64,000 nt of DNA from Candidatus Magasanikiibacteriota bacterium (GTDB lineage Bacteria; Patescibacteriota; Patescibacteriia; Magasanikbacterales; GWA2-37-8), in NCBI GenBank assembly GCA_041666745.1, contig JBAYGI010000006.1:3474-67473 (forward strand), in the 5' to 3' direction. The notes under the pieces were generated by a model, which was not told the origin of the DNA, made no database searches, and saw nothing but the letters and a program-made list of their open reading frames with translations. The translations under genes were made by a program, and so were the position numbers. Shown in pieces: positions 8,257-37,949 of this stretch (the stretch's first letter is position 1; every line of letters begins with the position of its first letter).

Positions 8257-10651
<2,395 letters not shown>

Positions 10652-15678: not shown

Positions 15679-15803
15679 AGCGGGGATATTGTAATACTTT
15701 TCTGGATGATTGACAAATATAGAAAAATATGATACAAAGCAGTGTCATGCTGAGAAGTTTTCTACAGCCTCTGACACCGTTCGTTGACTCAAAGGAGACT
15801 ATT

Positions 15804-16391
15804 TTGAAGAGGTTCATTGTCGCAACACTGGCGATGATTGTGGGGTTCTCCACCACAACAGCCGGTGCAGACACATTTTCCGCCAGTCGAGTCAGGATGC
15901 TCATCCATGGCTCCAACCAGTTCAGCGAGCAGTTGGGCGCGTCTGTTCACTTCATTCCGGCTGGAAATCTGCTGGGAGAGGTAGCACCGTTGATCTACGG
16001 CTCGTTCGACTGGACACCGATTCCGGAACTGACAATCAGCCCTACCGTGGGCTGGACGTTCAAGCCGGATGAGATGGTTGTGTCGCTCCGCCTCGCCCCG
16101 AAAATCGGCAAGTTCTGGGGGTGGGTGGATCTTGAAGAACGACCGACGTCCCGTGCATTCTACTGGTTCGTGCAGGCTCAATACCAGGTAACGAGCTTCC
16201 TGCACATCGGTGCCGAGCAAGAGTCATGGGGCGATTTCCACGACTTCAGCACGGCTTCGCACGGTGGCGGCCCGAACGTCCTCCTCCGCTTCGGAAGAAA
16301 CTTCGGCACAGACCTTGCACTACACGCCCGTTCCCTCGGCGGCAGTGCGGTCAATCTGGAGTTCTTTTCCCGGATCCATTTGTTCCTCTAA
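15804..16391 (+). CDS. GC-rich secreted protein, paralog 1 (island C)
   Basis: TTG start after an AAGGAG RBS. Signal peptide MKRFIVATLAMIVGFSTTTAGA. Beta-rich alternating pattern ending NLEFFSRIHLFL. TTGACA promoter at 15709. The ORF-track ATG at 15729 is probably too far upstream. Confidence 0.5.
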   Translation: MKRFIVATLAMIVGFSTTTAGADTFSASRVRMLIHGSNQFSEQLGASVHFIPAGNLLGEVAPLIYGSFDWTPIPELTISPTVGWTFKPDEMVVSLRLAPKIGKFWGWVDLEERPTSRAFYWFVQAQYQVTSFLHIGAEQESWGDFHDFSTASHGGGPNVLLRFGRNFGTDLALHARSLGGSAVNLEFFSRIHLFL

Positions 16392-16470
16392 CCGGTTGCG
16401 CGCTACCGTCCAACAAAGCGCGCAAAATCTTTTTCAACTTAATATATTTAGGTTTAAGAAGATAATAAAA
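16392..16470 (+). repeat. conserved 3' element copy 1 (hairpin ttgcgcgc...gcgcgcaa)
   Basis: About 90% identical over ~80 bp to 19343-19425. Followed by a terminator at 16471-16506. Confidence 0.7.
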
Positions 16471-16511
16471 AAAACCGACTGCCATCTGCGATCGGTTTTT
16501 TTATAAAAATC

Positions 16512-16709: not shown

Positions 16710-16779
16710 TTTTCTGATACAGTATATTCAGGTAACAAGAAACTCGGGACAAATCCGCCGAAAGGGGAAAGCCGTAAGG

Positions 16780-17349
16780 CTACCGAGTCATCTGACCGTC
16801 CACAAGCTGGACGGTTATTTTTTTCTCAAATAATTTAGTTAATTTAATAGTTTGCTCTGTGGAATTATCTGCGTGAGAACGAAATAATCCTGCGATTGCG
16901 TCCGCTAATCTCAAGCCCGCCGACGCTTCGTCCCTTAACAATCTAATTTTCTTTACAGAAATATTTTTATCACGCAAAACCTTTTTTAGTTTTTGTTCAT
17001 ATCGTTTTGACTTTTTACCATCTATAATTATTTTTTTAATATTGTGTTCTATTATTAAATGCTGAAAAATATTTTCAAAAGCAATATTATAATTTATTGG
17101 ATTATTTACAATGGCTAGTTTAAAAGAAAAATCCAAATTACTCACTACAGTAAGAAAACTTGCTCGTTTTTTCCATCCATTTGTTGAACCATAATCCGAC
17201 CAATGAAACGGTTTTATGCATAATAATTTTTCTACTTCAACAACCGCTTCTTCCATTTCTTTGATACTTTTTGCTTGTAAATAAACAAAAGAAATAGTTG
17301 AATGCCCTACTTTTTTATGAATACCTGATTCGTCTATAAAAATTATCAT
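16780..17349 (-). CDS. DUF3800 family protein
   Basis: N-terminal MIIFIDESG signature. Confidence 0.55.
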   Translation of the reverse strand: MIIFIDESGIHKKVGHSTISFVYLQAKSIKEMEEAVVEVEKLLCIKPFHWSDYGSTNGWKKRASFLTVVSNLDFSFKLAIVNNPINYNIAFENIFQHLIIEHNIKKIIIDGKKSKRYEQKLKKVLRDKNISVKKIRLLRDEASAGLRLADAIAGLFRSHADNSTEQTIKLTKLFEKKITVQLVDGQMTR

Positions 17350-17394: not shown

Positions 17395-18543
17395 TTAAAT
17401 TTTTTTCCCCCACAGCTGATCAAAATACGATTTAAAACCAGCATATATTTCGGGCTGTGCAAAATGAATCACGGTAGGATTTTCGCCATACAAAATAATA
17501 AAAGCCTTGTTGTGAAACAAATTTATTTGCATCGGAATTTTTGGAGCCGACGCGTAAAGTTTCAGATGACTAATTTTTTCCATACCGTCACCAGACTGCA
17601 CAAATCTTTTTTTAATTCGATCAAAAGATTCACTATATACCAACATGTTGGCTACAACTCCTTTTTTAATTCTATCCGTATGAAATTCATCATACAATTT
17701 TTGGACAACACCATTTTCATCTCCGGCTGAAGCGCCCAACACAAAATATTCTTCACCTGTTTTTAATTCATCCAACATTTTATAAATAGTTTTTTTCAAA
17801 GAACCAATCCCGGTCTCTACCACCACCTGTTGACTCCAAAAATATTCAAAATATTTTTTCATCGCATCCACTACCGTACGACTGCGAATATGAAAAACCA
17901 GTGGATCTTCGTCGATTACCATGATAGATAATTTGTCATAGCAAAAATTAAACCAAAGGGGCATTTTGGCATCAAACGGCAGATACCTCGCTTCTGTAAG
18001 ATCTTTTTTGTTGCGATCATCTAAAATTTCTTGTTCGACGGTGTGGTCAAAGAGAATTTTAAAGTTAACATTTTTCTTAATCCTTCTTTTGTGAAAATCT
18101 TTCCAATCAAACGAACCACCTTCGGTTGATTCTCTAGTTGCACCAAGCACATACATTGTTTCGCCCGGTGGCGCGTCAGCACTTCTTTCGGTAGTATTTT
18201 TTATTGCCTCCACTCCTTCAAACACACCGACCTCACGCATTCCAACCTTGTGTCTTTTTTGTAGTTCGGAGACTAGGTTTTCTGCGGTCTTTCTTTTATT
18301 CTCCAAATCTTCAATTATATGTTCTGGGCCATTCGCCGAAAACTCAAAAACACCTTTACGTTCGGCCTTGGATACCATGTCTCTTTTGACCAGTTCCTCT
18401 AAGGCAGTATAGACGAGGTTGCGATGAAGGCCTGTTTTGCTGATTATCTGACCGGCTTTGGCTTTTTGCAAATCTATTAAGGCCAAGTACACAATAGCCT
18501 CATTTTTACCAAAGCCTAATTTTGCTAGTTCATTTTCTAACAT
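17395..18543 (-). CDS. TrmB-family transcriptional regulator (N-terminal wHTH plus C-terminal domain)
   Basis: N-terminus LAKLGFGKNEAIVYLALIDLQKAKAGQIISKTGLHRNLVYTALEELVKRDMV. Confidence 0.55.
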   Translation of the reverse strand: MLENELAKLGFGKNEAIVYLALIDLQKAKAGQIISKTGLHRNLVYTALEELVKRDMVSKAERKGVFEFSANGPEHIIEDLENKRKTAENLVSELQKRHKVGMREVGVFEGVEAIKNTTERSADAPPGETMYVLGATRESTEGGSFDWKDFHKRRIKKNVNFKILFDHTVEQEILDDRNKKDLTEARYLPFDAKMPLWFNFCYDKLSIMVIDEDPLVFHIRSRTVVDAMKKYFEYFWSQQVVVETGIGSLKKTIYKMLDELKTGEEYFVLGASAGDENGVVQKLYDEFHTDRIKKGVVANMLVYSESFDRIKKRFVQSGDGMEKISHLKLYASAPKIPMQINLFHNKAFIILYGENPTVIHFAQPEIYAGFKSYFDQLWGKKI

Positions 18544-19342: not shown

Positions 19343-19425
19343 CCCATAACCGGTCGCGCGCTACCATCCAACAAAGCGCGCAAAATCTTTTTCAACTTAA
19401 TACCTTTAGGTTTAAGAAGACAACA
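19343..19425 (+). repeat. conserved 3' element copy 2
   Basis: Aligns with 16392-16470. Terminator at 19424-19457. Confidence 0.7.
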
Positions 19426-19466
19426 AAAAACCACCCGAGAGAAGGGTGGTTTTTTGTTTATAAATT

Positions 19467-22148: not shown

Positions 22149-22176
22149 TTGTCATTCCCGCAAAAGCGGGAATCTA
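22149..22176 (+). repeat. hairpin repeat family 1, copy b (left terminal inverted repeat of the mini-cassette)
   Basis: ttgtcattcccgcaaaagcgggaatc. Confidence 0.6.
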
Positions 22177-22630: not shown

Positions 22631-22732
22631 AAACCGCCACAGAAAATTACTTTTGAGCGGGTTATGCGCCGAGGCGCATCCTTTTGCCCTCGCGGGCAAA
22701 AAAAGCGAAAAAGTCATTTTCTGTGGCGGTTT
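22631..22732. repeat. R3 structured element copy 1, inside an 18-bp inverted-repeat terminator stem
   Basis: Core 22653-22710 is ttgagcgggttatgcgccgaggcgcatccttttgccctcgcgggcaaaaaaagcgaaa. Flanks aaaaccgccacagaaaat / attttctgtggcggtttt followed by a T-run. Confidence 0.6.
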
Positions 22733-22769
22733 TGTTTTTTACCCATCTTACCTAAAACGCCATATTAGA

Positions 22770-22841
22770 GGTACCGGTGGGAATTGCACCCACGCATAAG
22801 GGTTTTGCAGACCCTTGTCTTACTGCTTGACGACGGTACCA
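22770..22841 (-). tRNA. tRNA-Cys (GCA), atypical T-loop
   Basis: Perfect 7-bp acceptor stem ggtaccg/cggtacc. U73 discriminator (Cys identity). Anticodon loop ctGCAaa. T-loop TGCAATT carries G at position 55 instead of U. Confidence 0.55.
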
Positions 22842-24342: not shown

Positions 24343-26373
24343 ATGTTAACTATACCAGTTATCATTTCGTTTATTGCCTTGGCCTTCGCGGTCTATCTGG
24401 TCACCTGGATAAACAAGCAAGACATGGGCACTGCAAAAATGCAGGAAATCTACGAGGCAATCAAAAAAGGAGCAAACGCCTTTTTGAACAGACAATACAG
24501 AACTATCGGAATAATGTCAGTTGTTTTGGCCATAGTTCTCTTTAGTGTTTACGCTTTAAATGGAAAATGGGTATCGGGTTTGCAAATTTCTTTAGCATTT
24601 CTTTTGGGTGCTTTTTGTTCTTGTCTTTCCGGGCTTATCGGCATGTGGATTTCTGTGCGATCAAACATCCGCACCGCCTCGGCCGCACAAACAAGTTTTA
24701 GCAAGGCATTATCTATCGCTTTTAGAGCCGGTGCTGTTTCCGGTATTACCATTGTGGCCATGAGTTTGCTCGGCATCAGTGGTCTTTATTATATTTATAC
24801 TCTTTTGGGCTATACCGGCATCCAGATCCCTGCTCTATTGGTAGGTTTTGGTTTTGGCGCCAGTTTAGTCGCCTTGTTTGCTCAATTAGGTGGTGGTATT
24901 TTTACCAAAGCCGCCGATGTTGGAGCCGACTTGGTAGGTAAAGTAGAAAAAGGAATCCCGGAAGATGATCCACGCAACCCAGCGGTTATTGCCGATTTGG
25001 TTGGGGATAATGTTGGTGATTGTGCTGGTAGAGGAGCCGATTTGTTTGAATCCACCGCAGCCGAAAATATCGGCGCGATGATCTTGGGTGTTGCTCTTTA
25101 TCCACATTTTGGAATCAACGGTATTCTTTTTCCATTGGTTATCCGCGGTTTTGGTTTAATCTGCGCGATGGTTGGTATCTTGTGTGCCAAAGCAAAAGAA
25201 ACCGACGAACCACTAAAGGCATTGAATAAAGGATATTTTATTACCTGTGCATTGGCAGCTGTTGCTTTTTACTTCGTGACAATGAACATGTTGAATAGCA
25301 TTTTGATGTTCTACGCCGGTTTGGTTGGTTTGGCAGCAAGTATCGTTTTCGTTTTCGTAACTCAATATTACACAGAACACAGATTCCGCCCGGTACAAGA
25401 TATCGCCAAGGCCTCTTTGACCGGCCATGCGACCAATATTATTGCCGGACTTTCTGTTGGTTTTGAATGTACTGCCGCCACTGTTGTTACAATTTCCGCC
25501 GCTTTATTGGCCTCATACAAATTAGGAGAAATGACCGGTTTTGCTTCCGGTGGAATTTACGGTACAGCTGTGGCTACTATGGGTATGTTGTCCACCGCCG
25601 CATATATTTTGGCCATGGACACTTTTGGACCTATCACAGATAATGCCGGTGGTATAGTAGAAATGTCTGGTGCTTCAGAAGAAATCCGCCAGAGAACAGA
25701 TAAATTGGACGCCGCTGGAAACACTACCAAGGCCTTGACCAAAGGTTATGCTATGGGTAGTGCCGCCTTAGCTGCATTTTTACTTTTTTCCGCATTTTTG
25801 CAAGAAGCAAATATTCAAACTGTTGACTTGGCAAAGGTGGAGGTTTTCGTTGCCGCCCTTGTTGGTGCGATGTTAATTTTCTTCTTCTCTGCTTTAACAA
25901 TGAGAGCAGTCGGAAAAGCCGCTGGAAAAGTGGTTGAGGAAGTCCGACGCCAATTCAAAGCCGACCCGGGTTTGATGGCAGGCACAAGCAAACCGGATTA
26001 TGCCGCTTGTGTGGATATCACCACCAAAGAAGCCTTGAAACAAATGGTAATGCCAGGATTGTTGGCTGTAATCGTGCCAATAGCTATCGGTGTTACAATG
26101 AAAGCTGAAGCCGAAGCAGGTTTGATAATGGTCGGCACAATCGCCGGCATCCTCTTGGCCACTGTTATGAACAATGCCGGAGGCGCTTGGGACAATGCTA
26201 AAAAATATATTGAAATGGGAAATCTCGGTGGCAAAGGCAGTGATGCCCACAAAGCAGCCGTCACCGGCGACACCGTCGGCGACCCATTCAAAGACACAGC
26301 AGGACCTTCACTGCATGTGTTGGTGAAATTGCTAGGCACTTTGTCTTTGGCATTGGTGGCGTTGTTTATATAA
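24343..26373 (+). CDS. hppA: membrane-bound H+/Na+-translocating pyrophosphatase
   Basis: GGGIFTKAADVGADLVGK, DNVGDCAGRGADLFES and GDTVGDPFKDTAGPS motifs. Confidence 0.9.
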   Translation: MLTIPVIISFIALAFAVYLVTWINKQDMGTAKMQEIYEAIKKGANAFLNRQYRTIGIMSVVLAIVLFSVYALNGKWVSGLQISLAFLLGAFCSCLSGLIGMWISVRSNIRTASAAQTSFSKALSIAFRAGAVSGITIVAMSLLGISGLYYIYTLLGYTGIQIPALLVGFGFGASLVALFAQLGGGIFTKAADVGADLVGKVEKGIPEDDPRNPAVIADLVGDNVGDCAGRGADLFESTAAENIGAMILGVALYPHFGINGILFPLVIRGFGLICAMVGILCAKAKETDEPLKALNKGYFITCALAAVAFYFVTMNMLNSILMFYAGLVGLAASIVFVFVTQYYTEHRFRPVQDIAKASLTGHATNIIAGLSVGFECTAATVVTISAALLASYKLGEMTGFASGGIYGTAVATMGMLSTAAYILAMDTFGPITDNAGGIVEMSGASEEIRQRTDKLDAAGNTTKALTKGYAMGSAALAAFLLFSAFLQEANIQTVDLAKVEVFVAALVGAMLIFFFSALTMRAVGKAAGKVVEEVRRQFKADPGLMAGTSKPDYAACVDITTKEALKQMVMPGLLAVIVPIAIGVTMKAEAEAGLIMVGTIAGILLATVMNNAGGAWDNAKKYIEMGNLGGKGSDAHKAAVTGDTVGDPFKDTAGPSLHVLVKLLGTLSLALVALFI

Positions 26374-26409
26374 TTTCTTTAATTTTATTCAACCGTCCGT
26401 TCCACTTTT

Positions 26410-26472
26410 GTCATTCCCGCGAAGGCGGGAATCCAGTCGCTCGTTACTGTCATCCTGAGTATAGCGAAGGAT
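26410..26472 (+). repeat. hairpin repeat family 1, tandem copies d1 and d2
   Basis: tgtcattcccgcgaaggcgggaatcc plus the diverged tgtcatcctgagtatagcgaaggatcc. Terminator at 26487-26534. Confidence 0.55.
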
Positions 26473-26641
26473 CCCTTAAATCCATTTTCACAACAGAACA
26501 AAAACCACCGACCAATCACCGGTGGTTTTTTATTTGAAAAGGCACTATCCCCATTGACTTCTTTCTTTTTTTTAATTAGTATGAAACCTAATGTTCGTGG
26601 CTAAACTCTAACCACGAAACCCAACCACCAGGAGAACTGAC

Positions 26642-27013
26642 ATGACCCTGAAATCCGAGCTCGTGGCAATACGCCAAGACAAGCAGGAAAGTCGCGACAG
26701 AGAGGACCAGAGGATAGTTCAGGAGAGTCACGACCACATGACTGCTCTGATCGACAACCTCCCTGACATGCTGAGGGCACAAGCCCGACTCAACGGCGGT
26801 ACGTTGTGGGTCAGCACATGCTACACCACCCATGTGAAGTGCGTGGTTCGTGACGAGGAAGGGGAAGACACTGTGTGGCACAGTGAGAAGACTTATTTCA
26901 CAGGGGCAGACTGGAGACGACTGGAAGTGTGGGTCCGGGAAAACGGCCTCCAGATGAATCGTCATCCAGATCAGGCCGCTGGGGGTGCGCCCTTGTACGG
27001 GATTGAGCCCTAA
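26642..27013 (+). CDS. hypothetical protein on GC-rich island E
   Basis: AGGAGA RBS. TTGACT-17-TAGTAT promoter at 26544. 123 aa with no recognised family. 11-bp-stem hairpin at 27027-27056. Confidence 0.5.
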   Translation: MTLKSELVAIRQDKQESRDREDQRIVQESHDHMTALIDNLPDMLRAQARLNGGTLWVSTCYTTHVKCVVRDEEGEDTVWHSEKTYFTGADWRRLEVWVRENGLQMNRHPDQAAGGAPLYGIEP

Positions 27014-27127
27014 CTCCAACCAACATGTCCCACTCGCACAGGCGAGCGAGTGGGACAGAGGCAATAGTATCTACATTGATCACTCGCCACGTAATTTGAA
27101 AATATTTTAAAATATGTTTTCAGATTA

Positions 27128-27192
27128 CGCGAGTGATCTAAACGCTTTAAATTAAAAAACATCGAAATTAAATTCGGTGTTTTTTTATTCCC
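27128..27192 (+). repeat. R4 direct repeat copy 1 (includes a terminator hairpin)
   Basis: gagtgatctaaacgctttaaattaaaaaacatcgaaattaaattcggtgttttttt. Near-identical to 28951-29010. Confidence 0.7.
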
Positions 27193-27245
27193 TAAATAAA
27201 TTCGTCAAAAAACAAATTTTGTGGTATCATATATAAAATTTCAAT

Positions 27246-28094
27246 ATGCATACTGTTAAAATTCTACAACCTACAAGCACGACACTGGTGGCTCAACTCT
27301 CTTCACTTTATCAAACATTTAAAGGTGTAAAACAAAAAGACGCTATTGAATTTGATTTTTCCAATCTTAATTTTATCTCTCCTCTGTTAATCTTGCCGTT
27401 ATGCGCGTATCTCAACGAAAGCAAAAGCTCCATAATAGGGACAACTCAGCACACCTCATACTTATCAGCGATTAAATTTCCAAAAGGAATAGACACCATA
27501 AATTCATTTCAGCAACAATTACAGTTTGCTAAAAATTTTGTGCCAATAAGTGTTTTAAAGAAAGATTATGGCGCTGACCGAGAACGACTGGAAACTCAAT
27601 TTGCCACTATGGTAAATAAAATTATCGGCTCAATCAAAGGATCCCAAAGCGCTATTTATCACCCTATTACCGAATTAGTCACCAATATTTTTGATCATAG
27701 TAAAAAAGACAGGGGTTACATATTTGGACAATATTATCCAAATAAAAAATTTCTTGACATTTGTATAGTTGATTGTGGCCGTGGTTTAAGTTGTGTGTAC
27801 AAAGAAGAAGAAGGACTGGAACTAAACGACGAAGAAGCAATAATTGAAGTAATGAAAGGTAATTCCACCAAACCGGGAAAAGAAAGAGGTTTTGGTGTAA
27901 GAACCTCAAAAAAAGTGATTTGCGAAGCTTTGGGAGGAGAATTTATTTTAATTTCCGGCAATACCGCATTAATTTCGGATAAAGGCAGAGAAAGAATAGT
28001 GTCATTGCCCGAGTTTTATTGGCAAGGAGTAATAATTTCATACCGCATACCTCAGCCCCATGGTGTTATTGACATTTACCCATATTTGGAATAG
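27246..28094 (+). CDS. STAS-like (DUF4325-like) N-terminus fused to a GHKL/HATPase_c serine-kinase-like domain
   Basis: N-box ITELVTNIFDHS, G1 IVDCGRGL and G2 GFGV. N-terminal EFDFSNLNFISPL resembles STAS/DUF4325. Confidence 0.5.
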   Translation: MHTVKILQPTSTTLVAQLSSLYQTFKGVKQKDAIEFDFSNLNFISPLLILPLCAYLNESKSSIIGTTQHTSYLSAIKFPKGIDTINSFQQQLQFAKNFVPISVLKKDYGADRERLETQFATMVNKIIGSIKGSQSAIYHPITELVTNIFDHSKKDRGYIFGQYYPNKKFLDICIVDCGRGLSCVYKEEEGLELNDEEAIIEVMKGNSTKPGKERGFGVRTSKKVICEALGGEFILISGNTALISDKGRERIVSLPEFYWQGVIISYRIPQPHGVIDIYPYLE

Positions 28095-28122
28095 TTTAAA
28101 GTGTAGGGTATAATATAGTTGT

Positions 28123-28494
28123 ATGGTAAAAGAAACTAAATCCACAATTAATGTATCAGAAATTTTAGCGAAAATCGTTGGCTCCAGGGATCTGTCCGAC
28201 ACGCTAAAAGACGCTATTTTAAAAACCAACACCAATGTGGTTGATTTGGATTTTTCTGAAGTTGAATTTATTTCTCGCTCGGCAGCGCACGAACTTTTGT
28301 CAATGAAGGAAGATCTTAAAAGGAAATTATTGAATAAGAAAGAAATCAATTTTGTTAATACTAATGAAGATGCCACAAAAATGTTTAGGGTGGTAGCTGC
28401 TAATAAAGCCATACCTGATCTTAAACCGACTTTTACCGCTGAACGGGTGGATATAGAATCACTGACGAAAAAAACGCATACTTGCGCTTGCTAA
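28123..28494 (+). CDS. standalone STAS-like (DUF4325-like) protein
   Basis: VVDLDFSEVEFISRSAAHELL motif. Sits 28 bp after the GHKL gene. Confidence 0.4.
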   Translation: MVKETKSTINVSEILAKIVGSRDLSDTLKDAILKTNTNVVDLDFSEVEFISRSAAHELLSMKEDLKRKLLNKKEINFVNTNEDATKMFRVVAANKAIPDLKPTFTAERVDIESLTKKTHTCAC

Positions 28495-28598
28495 AATAGC
28501 GAATAGGATGATGGTGCTTGTGAGGGTTTTGGCCCTCTCGCGGTCAACAAATGTTAAACCGCAGACGGGCAACATCATTTTGTTCGCTATTGTTTTTC
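28495..28598 (+). terminator. complex multi-stem terminator
   Basis: Outer stem aatagcgaa/ttcgctatt encloses two inner hairpins and is followed by gttttt. Confidence 0.4.
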
Positions 28599-28950
28599 CA
28601 AATCACCCTCGCACAGCACTCTTTCGATTTGATTGCTGATGGGGTGATTTTTGTTTAAATTGATTAACATAATAGTAACAAAAATACCCCGACAAAAGTT
28701 GAGGTATTTTTTCATGCTTGCCTTCGGCTTTACATTTAGCCGAATAGGGCTGACGCCCCACAAGCACGGTGTTATGATAGCACGAGAATTAGTAAAAGTC
28801 AATTAGTTATACACAAGATGCAGGTAATATGGACGTTTTTGACACGTTTTATCCATACTTAAAACTTATAATGATTTAGTAATACATTTTAAGTATACTT
28901 AAAATTGGTTTTGATTAATGCATCAAGTCCTCCTGCAAATGTTTAAATTT

Positions 28951-29010
28951 TGTGAGTGATCTAAACGCTTAAATTAAAAAACATCGAAATTAAATTCGGT
29001 GTTTTTTTGT
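28951..29010 (+). repeat. R4 direct repeat copy 2
   Basis: See copy 1. Confidence 0.7.
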
Positions 29011-29175
29011 TTCCAATTCACCTTTACACAAAACTCGGGCGGTTTTTTCTGCCTCTAGGCAGAAAGAGGCGCATGTACAGTATGTTGCCATAAAACTAGC
29101 AACATGATATATTATGTTTAGCTACAAAAATTAAATTTTTGAGCACAAATGTGCTATATTAACTAAAATTAAAAT

Positions 29176-30078
29176 ATGACGGAAAAACCCTTTCCCCAAA
29201 CTATGGCGAAACCAACACAAGAAACGGAGCCACAACCAGCCGATGTGGACAGACGAGAAGCCGAGATGACCACACTAAGAGAAGCAGTGACCACACTAAG
29301 AGAAGCAGTGGCCACACTACAAGCCAAGATGGCCGCACAACAAGCCAAGATGGCCGCACTAAAAGAAGCAATGGCCACACTGCAAGCCACTGTGGCATCT
29401 TATAGCGAGACCAGGCGCACATCAGAAGTTGTTTCCAAAGCCGAGTTTAACGAGGCAGCCAGAACAATAGAAAAAACATTACTAAAAATAAAAGAAATAA
29501 CCGAGGCATTCAGTACTTGGGCCGACGAATGTGCCGAAATTGCCAAAGAGATATCACATACTACTAACGATGGCTATCTGAAGCTGGTCGATGCATCTGA
29601 TGTGCCCAATGTGGCAAGAGATATTATTACCTGTGCAGAAGAACATTTAAAACGCCTGCATGCAACAATACAAGATGTCTTACAAGACCCGGGCACACCT
29701 TTGAGTTTGGGGTTAATAAACAAATTTCACCCGGATAATTGGTCACCAGAATTATGGCAAAACTTACAGAGTTCTCTTATTCGTTTATTCCTTCACAAAG
29801 TAATGACCGTTAAAAAAGAGGTGTTGATGGCACAAGCTAACAAACTTGGCCTTATTCAAAAAAGCGTACACTTGAACGGTTTAGAAAAGTGGTTTGGATG
29901 CCTAGACAAGTTGAGAGCTAGTGAAGTAAACAAAAAAGACTTTATACCTATATGGCGAGAACGTTTTGCTGGAATGGGAGTGTCGGACGGCCTATATGCC
30001 ACCGGCTTTGACGTTGAAATAGCAACTGGAGACACAGTTGCTTACCGATCACCTCCAACGATAAAAATCAGTGGATAG
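29176..30078 (+). CDS. hypothetical protein with a GC-rich tandem-repeat coiled-coil N-terminus (island F)
   Basis: 21-nt and 18-nt DNA tandem repeats encode TTLREAV x2 and AKMAA x2. GC falls from about 57% to about 40% along the gene. Confidence 0.45.
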   Translation: MTEKPFPQTMAKPTQETEPQPADVDRREAEMTTLREAVTTLREAVATLQAKMAAQQAKMAALKEAMATLQATVASYSETRRTSEVVSKAEFNEAARTIEKTLLKIKEITEAFSTWADECAEIAKEISHTTNDGYLKLVDASDVPNVARDIITCAEEHLKRLHATIQDVLQDPGTPLSLGLINKFHPDNWSPELWQNLQSSLIRLFLHKVMTVKKEVLMAQANKLGLIQKSVHLNGLEKWFGCLDKLRASEVNKKDFIPIWRERFAGMGVSDGLYATGFDVEIATGDTVAYRSPPTIKISG

Positions 30079-30107
30079 TAAATCAAAATTTACTTCCTGC
30101 CAATTCA

Positions 30108-30183
30108 ACGCCCGTTTTTTTGCCACATCACGCAATCACGGGCGTTTTTTATTGACATTTTTTCTTATTTACGCTACACTTTA
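30108..30183 (+). promoter_or_regulatory. terminator hairpin then TTGACA-17-TACACT promoter for tig
   Basis: aacgcccgt...acgggcgtttttt followed by a consensus -35. Confidence 0.45.
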
Positions 30184-30207
30184 CCCATTATTTACTATAT
30201 TTCATCT

Positions 30208-37854: not shown

Positions 37855-37949
37855 TTTAAAAAAATATTATTTCAATTGAGCGGGTTATGAGCCCGAGGCT
37901 CATCCTTTTGCCCCCGCGGGCAAAAAAAGCGAAATGAAATAATATTTTT
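37855..37949. repeat. R3 structured element copy 2, inside a 16-bp inverted-repeat terminator stem
   Basis: Core 37877-37932. Flanks aaaaaatattatttca / tgaaataatatttttt. Compensatory C-G to A-T change in the inner hairpin relative to copy 1. Confidence 0.6.

Follow-up and report, generated by a model that had tools for sequence, protein, structure and literature searches.

A candidate effector-less kinase-STAS switch of the CapK/VapK type, lying between direct repeats in a Patescibacteria genome

The closest characterized relatives of the genes described here are two immune switches that sense DNA damage and are activated by single-stranded DNA (ssDNA), CapK/CapS and VapK/VapS/VapC, which either regulate anti-phage systems or are such systems themselves (Chambers et al., EMBO J 2026; PMC13373217). 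CapK, a kinase with helix-turn-helix (HTH), STAS and GHKL domains, is paired with CapS, a repressor in which a STAS domain is followed by a winged HTH (wHTH), while VapK is a STAS-GHKL kinase that acts together with the antitoxin VapS, a STAS protein with a short C-terminal tail, and with the PIN toxin VapC. In these systems ssDNA activates the kinase via a stacking aromatic residue (W68 in CapK, F54 in VapK), and the kinase phosphorylates a conserved serine (S54 in CapS, S48 in VapS), whereupon the substrate is freed from DNA or from the toxin (PMC13373217). Here we analyze a 64,000-nt stretch of DNA from a Candidatus Magasanikiibacteriota bacterium (contig JBAYGI010000006.1, positions 3,474 to 67,473; hereafter "the window"), in which two genes, termed here K and S, are located between two copies of a direct repeat, R4, in the spacer that separates hppA from tig. 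We favor the view, with reasonable but far from full confidence, that they form an effector-less CapK/VapK-type kinase-STAS switch, an accessory mobile module inserted in the hppA-tig spacer, with R4 being the duplicated target. The original prediction, made from the DNA letters alone, guessed at a regulatory or defence-associated module, in agreement with the role of the relatives named above. The features on which the argument turns are:

27246..28094, plus strand: K, a CapK/VapK-like serine kinase of 282 aa, in which a helical linker connects an N-terminal alpha/beta (STAS-like) domain (residues ~1-105) to a GHKL ATP-binding domain
28123..28494, plus strand: S, a CapS/VapS-like single-domain STAS protein of 123 aa with a short basic C-terminal tail
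27131..27186, no strand: R4 copy A, an A/U-rich hairpin followed by a T run, with weaker similarity over 27119-27192; read as the left, attL-like copy of the target
28954..29008, no strand: R4 copy B, with weaker similarity over 28942-29014; read as the right, attR-like copy

Both open reading frames (ORFs) are exactly those predicted, and K is identical (100% at the protein level) to NCBI entry WCT11_03475 from a metagenome-assembled genome (MAG) of Candidatus Magasanikbacteria. Sequence comparison with the E. coli VapK by BLASTP revealed a full-length relationship (24% identity in 281 columns, residues 4-265 of K against 13-285 of VapK, E 4e-8), in which F43-I-S-P46 of K is aligned to F54-L-R-P57 of VapK. 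The alignment of the K family profile to VapK by hhalign obtained 95% probability (E 2e-8), and the two proteins share the NxFEHSK N-box and the FY(W/F)xG(V/T)I motif (the sequences of VapK and VapS were taken from the supplementary AlphaFold file of PMC13373217). The aromatic character of position 43 is retained throughout the family, with W in 54 of 63 homologs and F in the other 9, the window protein being among those with F43. The predicted N, G1 and G2 boxes of the RsbW/SpoIIAB type are borne out by residues E143, N147, D176, G178, G180, G215 and G217, which are invariant in the same 63 homologs and from which K looks catalytically competent. The structural model of K (pLDDT 86.8) comprises an alpha/beta N-domain (residues ~1-105), a helical linker and the GHKL domain, and its best structural matches are SpoIIAB, UsfX/RsbW and RsbW; a Foldseek search of the Protein Data Bank (PDB) with this model returned generic GHKL matches only, and searches of PDB sequences with K and S, both as single sequences and as profiles, yielded nothing useful. 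K matches phrog_3364 over its full length (E 1e-37) and, weakly, the DrmA model of PADLOC.

The domain assignments proposed originally were confirmed only in part. Pfam searches detected HATPase_c in K (E 1e-4) and STAS in S (E 5e-4), both under the gathering scores, no match of K to HATPase_c_2, no HTH in S, and no match of either protein to DUF4325 (PF14213) at E up to 1. Thus, of the "DUF4325/STAS-like" N-terminus ascribed to K, the STAS-like part is supported indirectly only, by the full-length homology to VapK, in which the N-domain is called STAS, and the DUF4325 part is not supported; comparison of the K N-domain with the profile of S by hhalign was not significant beyond a DFSxVxF motif. 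The description of the second gene product as a standalone STAS-like protein is correct: S has the STAS fold, its structural matches include RsbV, RsbS, SpoIIAA and TM1442, and it carries a C-terminal extension of ~30 residues. Invariant residues of S are S21-R22-D23, F49, S51-R52-S53, H56, R89 and N94. The S51-R52-S53 triplet is conserved without exception in 54 partners, with S51 and S53 flanking the start of STAS helix 2. By motif spacing, S51 (F-I-S51) corresponds to S48 of VapS (F-A-S48), and from these sequence features S51 is probably the phospho-acceptor. The S profile also matches, with 97% probability, two proteins from mobile elements, ORFC of the Methanothermobacter prophage psiM100 and gp42 of the Bacteroides phage BF1-TP2, both of which keep the signature F(I/M)SRS(A/F)A(H/D)E. 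Against the DUF4325 model, ORFC scores 29.4 bits (above the cut-off) and gp42 17.3 bits, and VapS matches with E 3e-17. DUF4325 is therefore the family of S homologs, rather than a demonstrated match on the N-terminus of K.

Database searches revealed that K belongs to a large family. Homologs of K fall into 218 clusters (90% identity), are 50-84% identical to it among the 120 listed, and are nearly all ~284 aa long; the clusters for which an organism is named come from Patescibacteria, plus one from Omnitrophota. A profile search of 1.84 billion representatives retrieved 250 clusters (50% identity) at E<=1e-30 and 3,781 at E<=1e-3, and most of the 150 matches listed are full-length proteins of 270-310 aa. 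We found the pair as a self-contained cassette of ~1.3 kb in 45 species-level genomes, nearly all of Patescibacteria, and in every locus where the contig continues the S gene lies 30-130 nt downstream of K. The DNA homology between the cassettes of L008, L011 and L035 begins ~50 nt before the K gene and ends with the stop codon of S (~1.32 kb), and minimal cassettes leave 0-70 nt after the S stop. Clustering of all neighbors in the 45 loci revealed no third conserved gene. With neither an effector nor a DNA-binding domain in the cassette, the target of S (or K) should be sought elsewhere in the genome, or the two proteins should be viewed as a toxin/antitoxin-like couple. The pair belongs to the same kinase superfamily as CapKS and VapKSC, but fails the features that define either named system, because K lacks the HTH, S lacks the wHTH, and neither VapC nor a downstream operon is present. 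We also considered a circular permutation of the cassette ends and rejected it: the arms of minimal cassettes sum to ~63-77 nt but share no alignable sequence.

Homologous pairs were detected by tblastn in phage BF1-TP2 and in prophage psiM100. In the former, gp43 and gp42 are annotated as "ATP-binding protein" and "DUF4325 domain-containing protein", and gp43 is 30.6% identical to K over 89% of its length (E 2e-26). In the latter, ORFB (30% identity to K over 49% of the length) and ORFC reside in an annotated "inserted fragment IFa", and the record notes name the chromosomal MTH315/MTH316. The pair is thus a two-gene, effector-less switch of the Cap/Vap type that travels on mobile DNA across domains of life. 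In psiM100 (L090, 2693-5810) the pair is preceded by three tandem 125-bp repeats and followed by the 492-aa ORFD, which shows a faint resolvase-like match (E 0.09); we rejected IFa as a repeat-flanked analog of the window cassette, as its tandem 125-bp repeats are on one side only. Two distant relatives of K carry the STAS-GHKL module at the C-terminus of a larger protein (P0239, 1266 aa, and P0249, 527 aa), which in P0239 is preceded by a DEAD/ResIII helicase of superfamily 2 (SF2).

The two R4 copies bound a segment of 1.82 kb, which comprises the two genes and a structured non-coding tail. Their near-identity, claimed originally, is real: blastn aligns 27131-27186 to 28954-29008 with 98.2% identity over 56 columns (one 1-nt indel, E 2e-20), and repeat finding reports 27147-27192 against 28969-29014 (46 nt, 96%) and 27119-27158 against 28942-28981 (40 nt, 80%), the similarity continuing weakly for ~12 nt leftward of the 98% block. 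A 40-nt core of R4 has exactly two matches in the window (<=3 mismatches; 0 expected from shuffles), and the whole 64 kb contains only four significant direct-repeat pairs; hence R4 is not a common terminator repeat, a possibility that the original prediction had named as fatal to its proposal. No R4 copies were found in the 90 other loci compared, and an exact-pattern scan of metagenome contigs with the core, for an empty site or for further copies, gave 0 matches. In both copies the fold is an A/U-rich hairpin of 13 bp with a U run behind it. The hairpin of the original prediction is thus present, but a simple terminator scan passes over it owing to its small number of G-C pairs, so that its role as a terminator is inferred. 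The 10-bp inverted repeat noticed before copy A closes a longer structure:

27078..27138, no strand: imperfect palindrome of 61 nt with outer arms of 10 bp (gatcactcgc/gcgagtgatc), supported by the fold and by a self-complementary blastn match

The region 27072-27192 (121 nt) folds with a z-score of -9.95, the inverted repeat forming the base of the 61-nt hairpin, and the right arm of the palindrome is at the same time the left end of R4 copy A; this palindrome may be the terminator of the upstream ORF or a feature of a recombination site. Two independent Logan unitigs of the same sequencing run begin inside R4, one in copy A and one in copy B, each 30 nt short of the end of the exact repeat, which is the behavior that a true repeat would cause in a k=31 graph, and look-ups of the kinase and of the downstream ORF retrieved only unitigs of that run, which break inside R4. 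An assembly artefact was rejected as the origin of R4: the repeats are imperfect, separate unitigs support them, and the same architecture recurs in independent MAGs. We read R4 as a copied target sequence and not as an end borne by the element, and on inspection it has no GTTRRRY core.

To place the module in its genomic neighborhood, we compared the hppA-tig region of related genomes. A scan of metagenome contigs with the Tig protein retrieved 39 loci. In at least 20 related contigs hppA is located just upstream of tig, in most of them with an M23 peptidase gene upstream of hppA, and in none of these contigs does the spacer contain K, S or either of the ORFs that flank them in the window. 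The spacer is 3.8 kb long in the window (26374-30207) and ranges from 12 nt to 4.7 kb in the relatives, with varied cargo; it is a variable hot spot in these genomes. The closest K homolog with known context (75% identity) has a different gene neighborhood. Together with the repeats found around other cassettes (see below), the absence of the module from this site in all relatives found supports the proposal that it was inserted by recombination. Among the cargo of the spacer (L051-L079) we observed a ParB-like protein, a hydrolase and a methyltransferase, and in L073 short direct repeats of the spacer sequence bracket inserted ORFs.

We then surveyed direct repeats around the other cassettes by comparing 800 nt upstream with 1,200 nt downstream, and in a tighter test 300 nt with 800 nt. 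With the latter, 14 of 42 other loci proved to have direct repeats on both sides of the cassette, compared with 1 of 156 random control placements. They are 31-133 nt long and 80-100% identical, with a repeat-to-repeat spacing of 1.35-1.8 kb, and they are copies of local sequence that differ from locus to locus:

L043: the 3' end of tRNA-Lys
L014: degenerate units resembling a tRNA 3' end, downstream of tRNA-Met
L007 and L036: the last codons and the stop of rplL
L008: the 3' end of galE
L011: the ribosome-binding site and the first ~30 codons of a Wzx-like flippase gene
L015, L016, L017, L020 and the window: terminator hairpins

Single neighboring genes are flanked by repeats far less often (19 of 324). 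The positive ones are concentrated in these same loci, which contain several unrelated cassettes with a copy of one repeat between each and the next. In L014 (3066-12180), an intact tRNA-Met is followed by six repeat units with the core GGTGTAGATTCCGTCCnACTCCCGCA, which separate a 453-aa ORF, Fic, the K-S pair, a VWA protein, a methyltransferase and a metallophosphoesterase. This array showed no integrase. One of its units is a hybrid, with array-type sequence on the left and the native tRNA-downstream sequence on the right, as expected of an attR made by crossover in the common core. In L017 four units separate AbiEi/AbiEii, a nucleotidase with an HD protein, and K-S, and similar arrays with AbiE, Fic, DUF3800 and Schlafen/AlbA_2 cassettes are present in L004, L008, L011 and L035. 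Such neighbors place the pair in mobile and defence-related company.

Apart from K and S, the repeat-bounded unit contains nothing but, in the window, a small-RNA candidate, and it encodes no integrase; with no recombinase of its own, the module would have to be integrated in trans or by host recombination. Candidates for the origin of the duplication are a trans-acting site-specific recombinase, Campbell-type integration of a circle that carries a copy of the target, and template switching at staggered breaks. The targets are too diverse to sit easily with a single sequence-specific integrase, and the tRNA-derived arrays together with the hybrid unit argue for recombination in a shared core, at least at some sites. 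A reading of the repeats as integron attC sites was rejected, since they are derived from the target and differ between loci. We tentatively propose, as an idea that may well prove wrong, that Patescibacteria possess an undescribed cassette platform, in which units of 1-2 genes are inserted at hot spots between 30-130-nt copies of the local target by trans-acting or host recombination, with no integrase in or near the array, and K-S is among the most widespread cargoes. We found no literature on this cassette architecture in Patescibacteria or bacteria of the candidate phyla radiation (CPR). If such a platform exists, its units include, besides the K-S switch, AbiE, Fic, DUF3800, nucleotidases and methyltransferases, the recombination behind it makes long and variable target duplications, and the outcome is a functional analog of integrons. 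The effector-less K-S, which also occurs in phages and archaeal proviruses, would in that case sense ssDNA and act on a host protein as a stand-alone switch.

By analogy with the characterized systems, we envisage that K is kept inactive until a stress signal arrives. The likeliest signal would be ssDNA arising from phage infection or DNA damage, which may be bound in the groove between the two domains of K and stacked on W/F43. The activated K would phosphorylate Ser51 of S, located where STAS helix 2 begins, and thereby alter the binding of S, such that it is released from, or directed to, a target encoded elsewhere. The R4 copies would be the duplicated target (a terminator region) that was left at both junctions on integration, in the manner of attL and attR.

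Several observations weigh against this picture. For the switch itself, ssDNA sensing and phosphorylation of Ser51 rest on homology at 24-28% identity, and the cassette contains no effector. The profile of S gives no significant alignment to VapS by hhalign beyond the DFSxVxF motif, so S is linked to DUF4325 and VapS only via the intermediates psiM100 ORFC and phage gp42, and HMMER places the canonical phosphoserine of TM1442 opposite R52 of S and not S51. PADLOC and NCBIfam contain no meaningful family for the window proteins other than the weak DrmA match, and among the IMG/VR viral contigs no relative of K was confirmed. For the mobility, flanking repeats occur in about a third of the loci only, an empty site with a single R4 copy was not recovered among relatives or metagenome contigs, and the two R4 copies could in principle stem from a local duplication older than the cassette. 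With XerD and resolvase probes, no recombinase was found within ~6 kb of any cassette or in the window, which is a weak negative.

A fairly unlikely alternative, which overlaps with the switch just described, is that the pair is a selfish addiction or abortive-infection (Abi) couple, in which K would be toxic by phosphorylating essential host proteins and S would serve as a pseudo-substrate antitoxin. In its favor, K-S is a mobile two-gene cassette with promoters of its own, patchily distributed and located among other cassettes of the toxin-antitoxin (TA) and Abi type (AbiE and Fic), and VapS is a proven antitoxin in VapKSC (PMC13373217). In six loci (L029, L041, L042, L043, L044 and L046) we observed a frameshifted or truncated K next to an intact STAS ORF, and in no locus the reverse, which is weakly suggestive of a toxin-like K and an antitoxin-like S. 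This asymmetry does not, however, reach significance (about 0.12 from gene length alone), and assembly errors may account for some of the frameshifts. Moreover, the toxin of VapKSC is a separate PIN protein and not the kinase (PMC13373217).

Less probable still, and in our opinion quite doubtful, is classical partner switching, with K as an anti-sigma factor for a sigma factor encoded elsewhere and S as its antagonist, i.e. a housekeeping regulation. It would account for the resemblance of K to SpoIIAB, UsfX/RsbW and RsbW and of S to RsbV, RsbS, SpoIIAA and TM1442, some sources label the relatives anti-sigma or anti-anti-sigma factors, and in 3 of the 45 loci an rpoD-like gene is found no more than a few genes away from the pair. 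But neither a sigma factor nor a PP2C phosphatase gene is conserved beside the pair in the 45 loci, in line with the observation, made originally for the window, that no sigma factor is visible. The N-terminal domain of K is absent from SpoIIAB and RsbW, K is nearer to VapK (E 4e-8) than to HATPase_c_2 of Pfam (no match), and the canonical phosphoserine position is an invariant Arg in S. The patchy mobile distribution, the pseudogenes and the phage-borne copies are also unlike those of a core regulator.

That R4 has nothing to do with mobility, being a member of a terminator or REP-like family or an assembly artefact next to a pair native to the site, is highly improbable: the terminator-like hairpin of R4, the recurrence of REP-like hairpins in the window (e.g. 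~26406-26433) and the failure to recover an empty site or an excision junction speak for it, but R4 has two copies in 64 kb and none in 90 other loci, independent unitigs end inside both copies, the related genomes all lack the pair at this site, and the same architecture with other sequences is present in 14 MAGs from different studies against 1 of 156 controls.

Returning to the module read as an inserted CapK/VapK-type switch, its regulatory and non-coding features are the following:

27202..27230, plus strand: promoter-like site of K, TCGTCA-17-TATCAT with a TG extension, 15 nt before the ATG
28086..28114, plus strand: promoter-like site of S, TTGGAA-17-TATAAT, 8 nt before the ATG
28495..28591, plus strand: 97-nt hairpin directly after the S stop (-50.8 kcal/mol, z -9.3)
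28676..28770, minus strand: small-RNA candidate with a closing stem, two hairpins and an intrinsic terminator, and with a promoter-like site at 28802-28774

Both promoter-like sites have counterparts in the family: in 33 of 46 loci an extended -10 motif (TGnTAnnnT) is found within the 60 nt that precede the K gene, and the K-S spacer contains TATAAT or an extended -10 motif in 36 of 46. The non-coding tail (28495-28953) comprises the 97-nt hairpin, which is probably the operon terminator, and the small-RNA candidate. The original description of a complex terminator and structured non-coding DNA is apt, except for the length of the latter, given as 350 bp where the tail actually measures 459 nt. 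The small-RNA candidate has a minimum free energy of -43.2 kcal/mol (z -5.6), and L031 (7311-7403, Komeilibacteria) has a copy of 86% identity and the same fold right after its STAS gene. The candidate has no credible match in Rfam, and a search of 68 sources with a covariance model yielded no additional copy.

With regard to nucleotide composition, the cassette has a GC content of 0.36, the ORF upstream 0.565, the ORF downstream 0.44 and the 64-kb window 0.396; the original prediction had spoken of genes of host composition wedged between two GC-rich islands. The ORF upstream (26642-27013, 123 aa), for which a database look-up gave no record, is preceded by hppA (24343-26373, GC 0.45), and both are GC-rich. 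The window hppA is only 47-50% identical to that of the relatives, despite syntenic flanking genes, for which identity to the window reaches 80% (M23 peptidase) and 85% (tig). This suggests that hppA was replaced xenologously, together with the acquired 123-aa ORF. In the ORF downstream (29176-30078, 300 aa), 21-nt tandem repeats encode a coiled-coil segment (TLREAV.../AKMAA...); it has weak matches of the coiled-coil type only and is absent from the hppA-tig site in the relatives.

Other repeats were observed elsewhere in the window. A second module, of 2.9 kb on the minus strand and adjoining polA, is bracketed by an 84-nt direct repeat (16389-16472 and 19347-19430, 93%) that begins at the stop codon of the ORF 15729-16391; it contains genes for DUF3800 (16780-17349), a TrmB-like regulator (17395-18543) and a 150-aa ORF of no assigned family, as well as a DUF3800-II RNA (Rfam RF02961) at 16732-16797. 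A 59-nt direct repeat (93%) has copies 15.2 kb apart, at 22653-22710 and 37876-37934, the first located ~60-115 nt downstream of tRNA-Cys (22768-22840, minus strand). A short hairpin repeat similar to GTCATTCCCGCGAAGGCGGGAATCC is present at 26406-26433, 9666-9693 and 22149-22174, as well as once in L051, and looks like a REP (repetitive extragenic palindromic) element.

The CapK/VapK switches were described only in 2026, and always with an effector or a DNA-binding output. Here, a large clade has the sensor kinase and its substrate alone, in a minimal mobile cassette of reduced Patescibacteria genomes, with relatives in phages and an archaeal provirus. Knowing the target of the phosphorylated S would explain how a switch of this kind operates with no effector linked to it, and could reveal a stress or phage-sensing pathway in organisms with very few regulators. 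The recurrent locus-specific repeats and the arrays of unrelated cassettes, in turn, point to an uncharacterized route of gene acquisition in these genomes.

Comparison with the known systems places the pair nearest to VapKSC, which it resembles in a kinase composed of STAS and GHKL without an HTH (282 vs 302 aa), co-linear over the full length, and in a STAS gene of ~120 aa right after it, whose product has a short C-terminal tail and a Ser two residues past a conserved Phe. It differs in the absence of VapC or any other third gene, in the invariant SRD...SRS..H...R..AN signature peculiar to S and in a kinase identity of only 24-28%, and the published gene list (Dataset EV3, PMC13373217) names no Patescibacteria. 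With CapK/CapS it shares the order of K and S, a promoter of its own for S, and a W conserved at the equivalent of CapK W68, but it has neither the N-terminal HTH of the kinase nor the C-terminal wHTH of the substrate. S is therefore not a DNA-binding repressor of the CapS type, and there is no conserved downstream immune operon. Thus, of the features common to CapK and VapK, the STAS-like and GHKL kinase, the STAS gene immediately downstream and the aromatic residue aligned to W68/F54 are all present, while the output of either system, be it a wHTH, VapC or a downstream operon, is missing: S has no HTH match, and a third gene is not conserved in the 45 loci. SpoIIAB/SpoIIAA and RsbW/RsbV (also SiaB/SiaC) provide the best matching folds and the same principle, a GHKL serine kinase acting on a STAS substrate, but differ in lacking the extra N-domain of K, in their linked sigma or PP2C genes, in the phosphoserine position, which is Arg in S, and in the mobile context of the pair.

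As to the architecture of the locus, tycheposons offer a comparison for island arrays that target tRNA genes. The arrays described here resemble integrons and tRNA islands in having short cargo units separated by one repeat, mostly in one orientation, at a hot spot, and, for L014 and L043, in a repeat that represents a degenerate tRNA 3' end beside an intact tRNA gene. Integrons differ in that attC is borne by the cassette (with RYYYAAC and GTTRRRY cores) and used with IntI and attI, in place of the locus-specific target copies of 31-133 nt seen here. As in integrase-borne islands, direct repeats of the target end flank the insert (R4, and the repeats of L043, L014, L007, L036 and L008), but the integrase is not encoded within the element. 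The pairs from BF1-TP2 (gp43/gp42) and psiM100 (ORFB/ORFC) belong to phage and prophage genomes of Bacteroidota and Archaea, in psiM100 with the one-sided tandem repeats and ORFD in addition, but they represent the same two-gene family as K-S and, like it, reside on mobile DNA.

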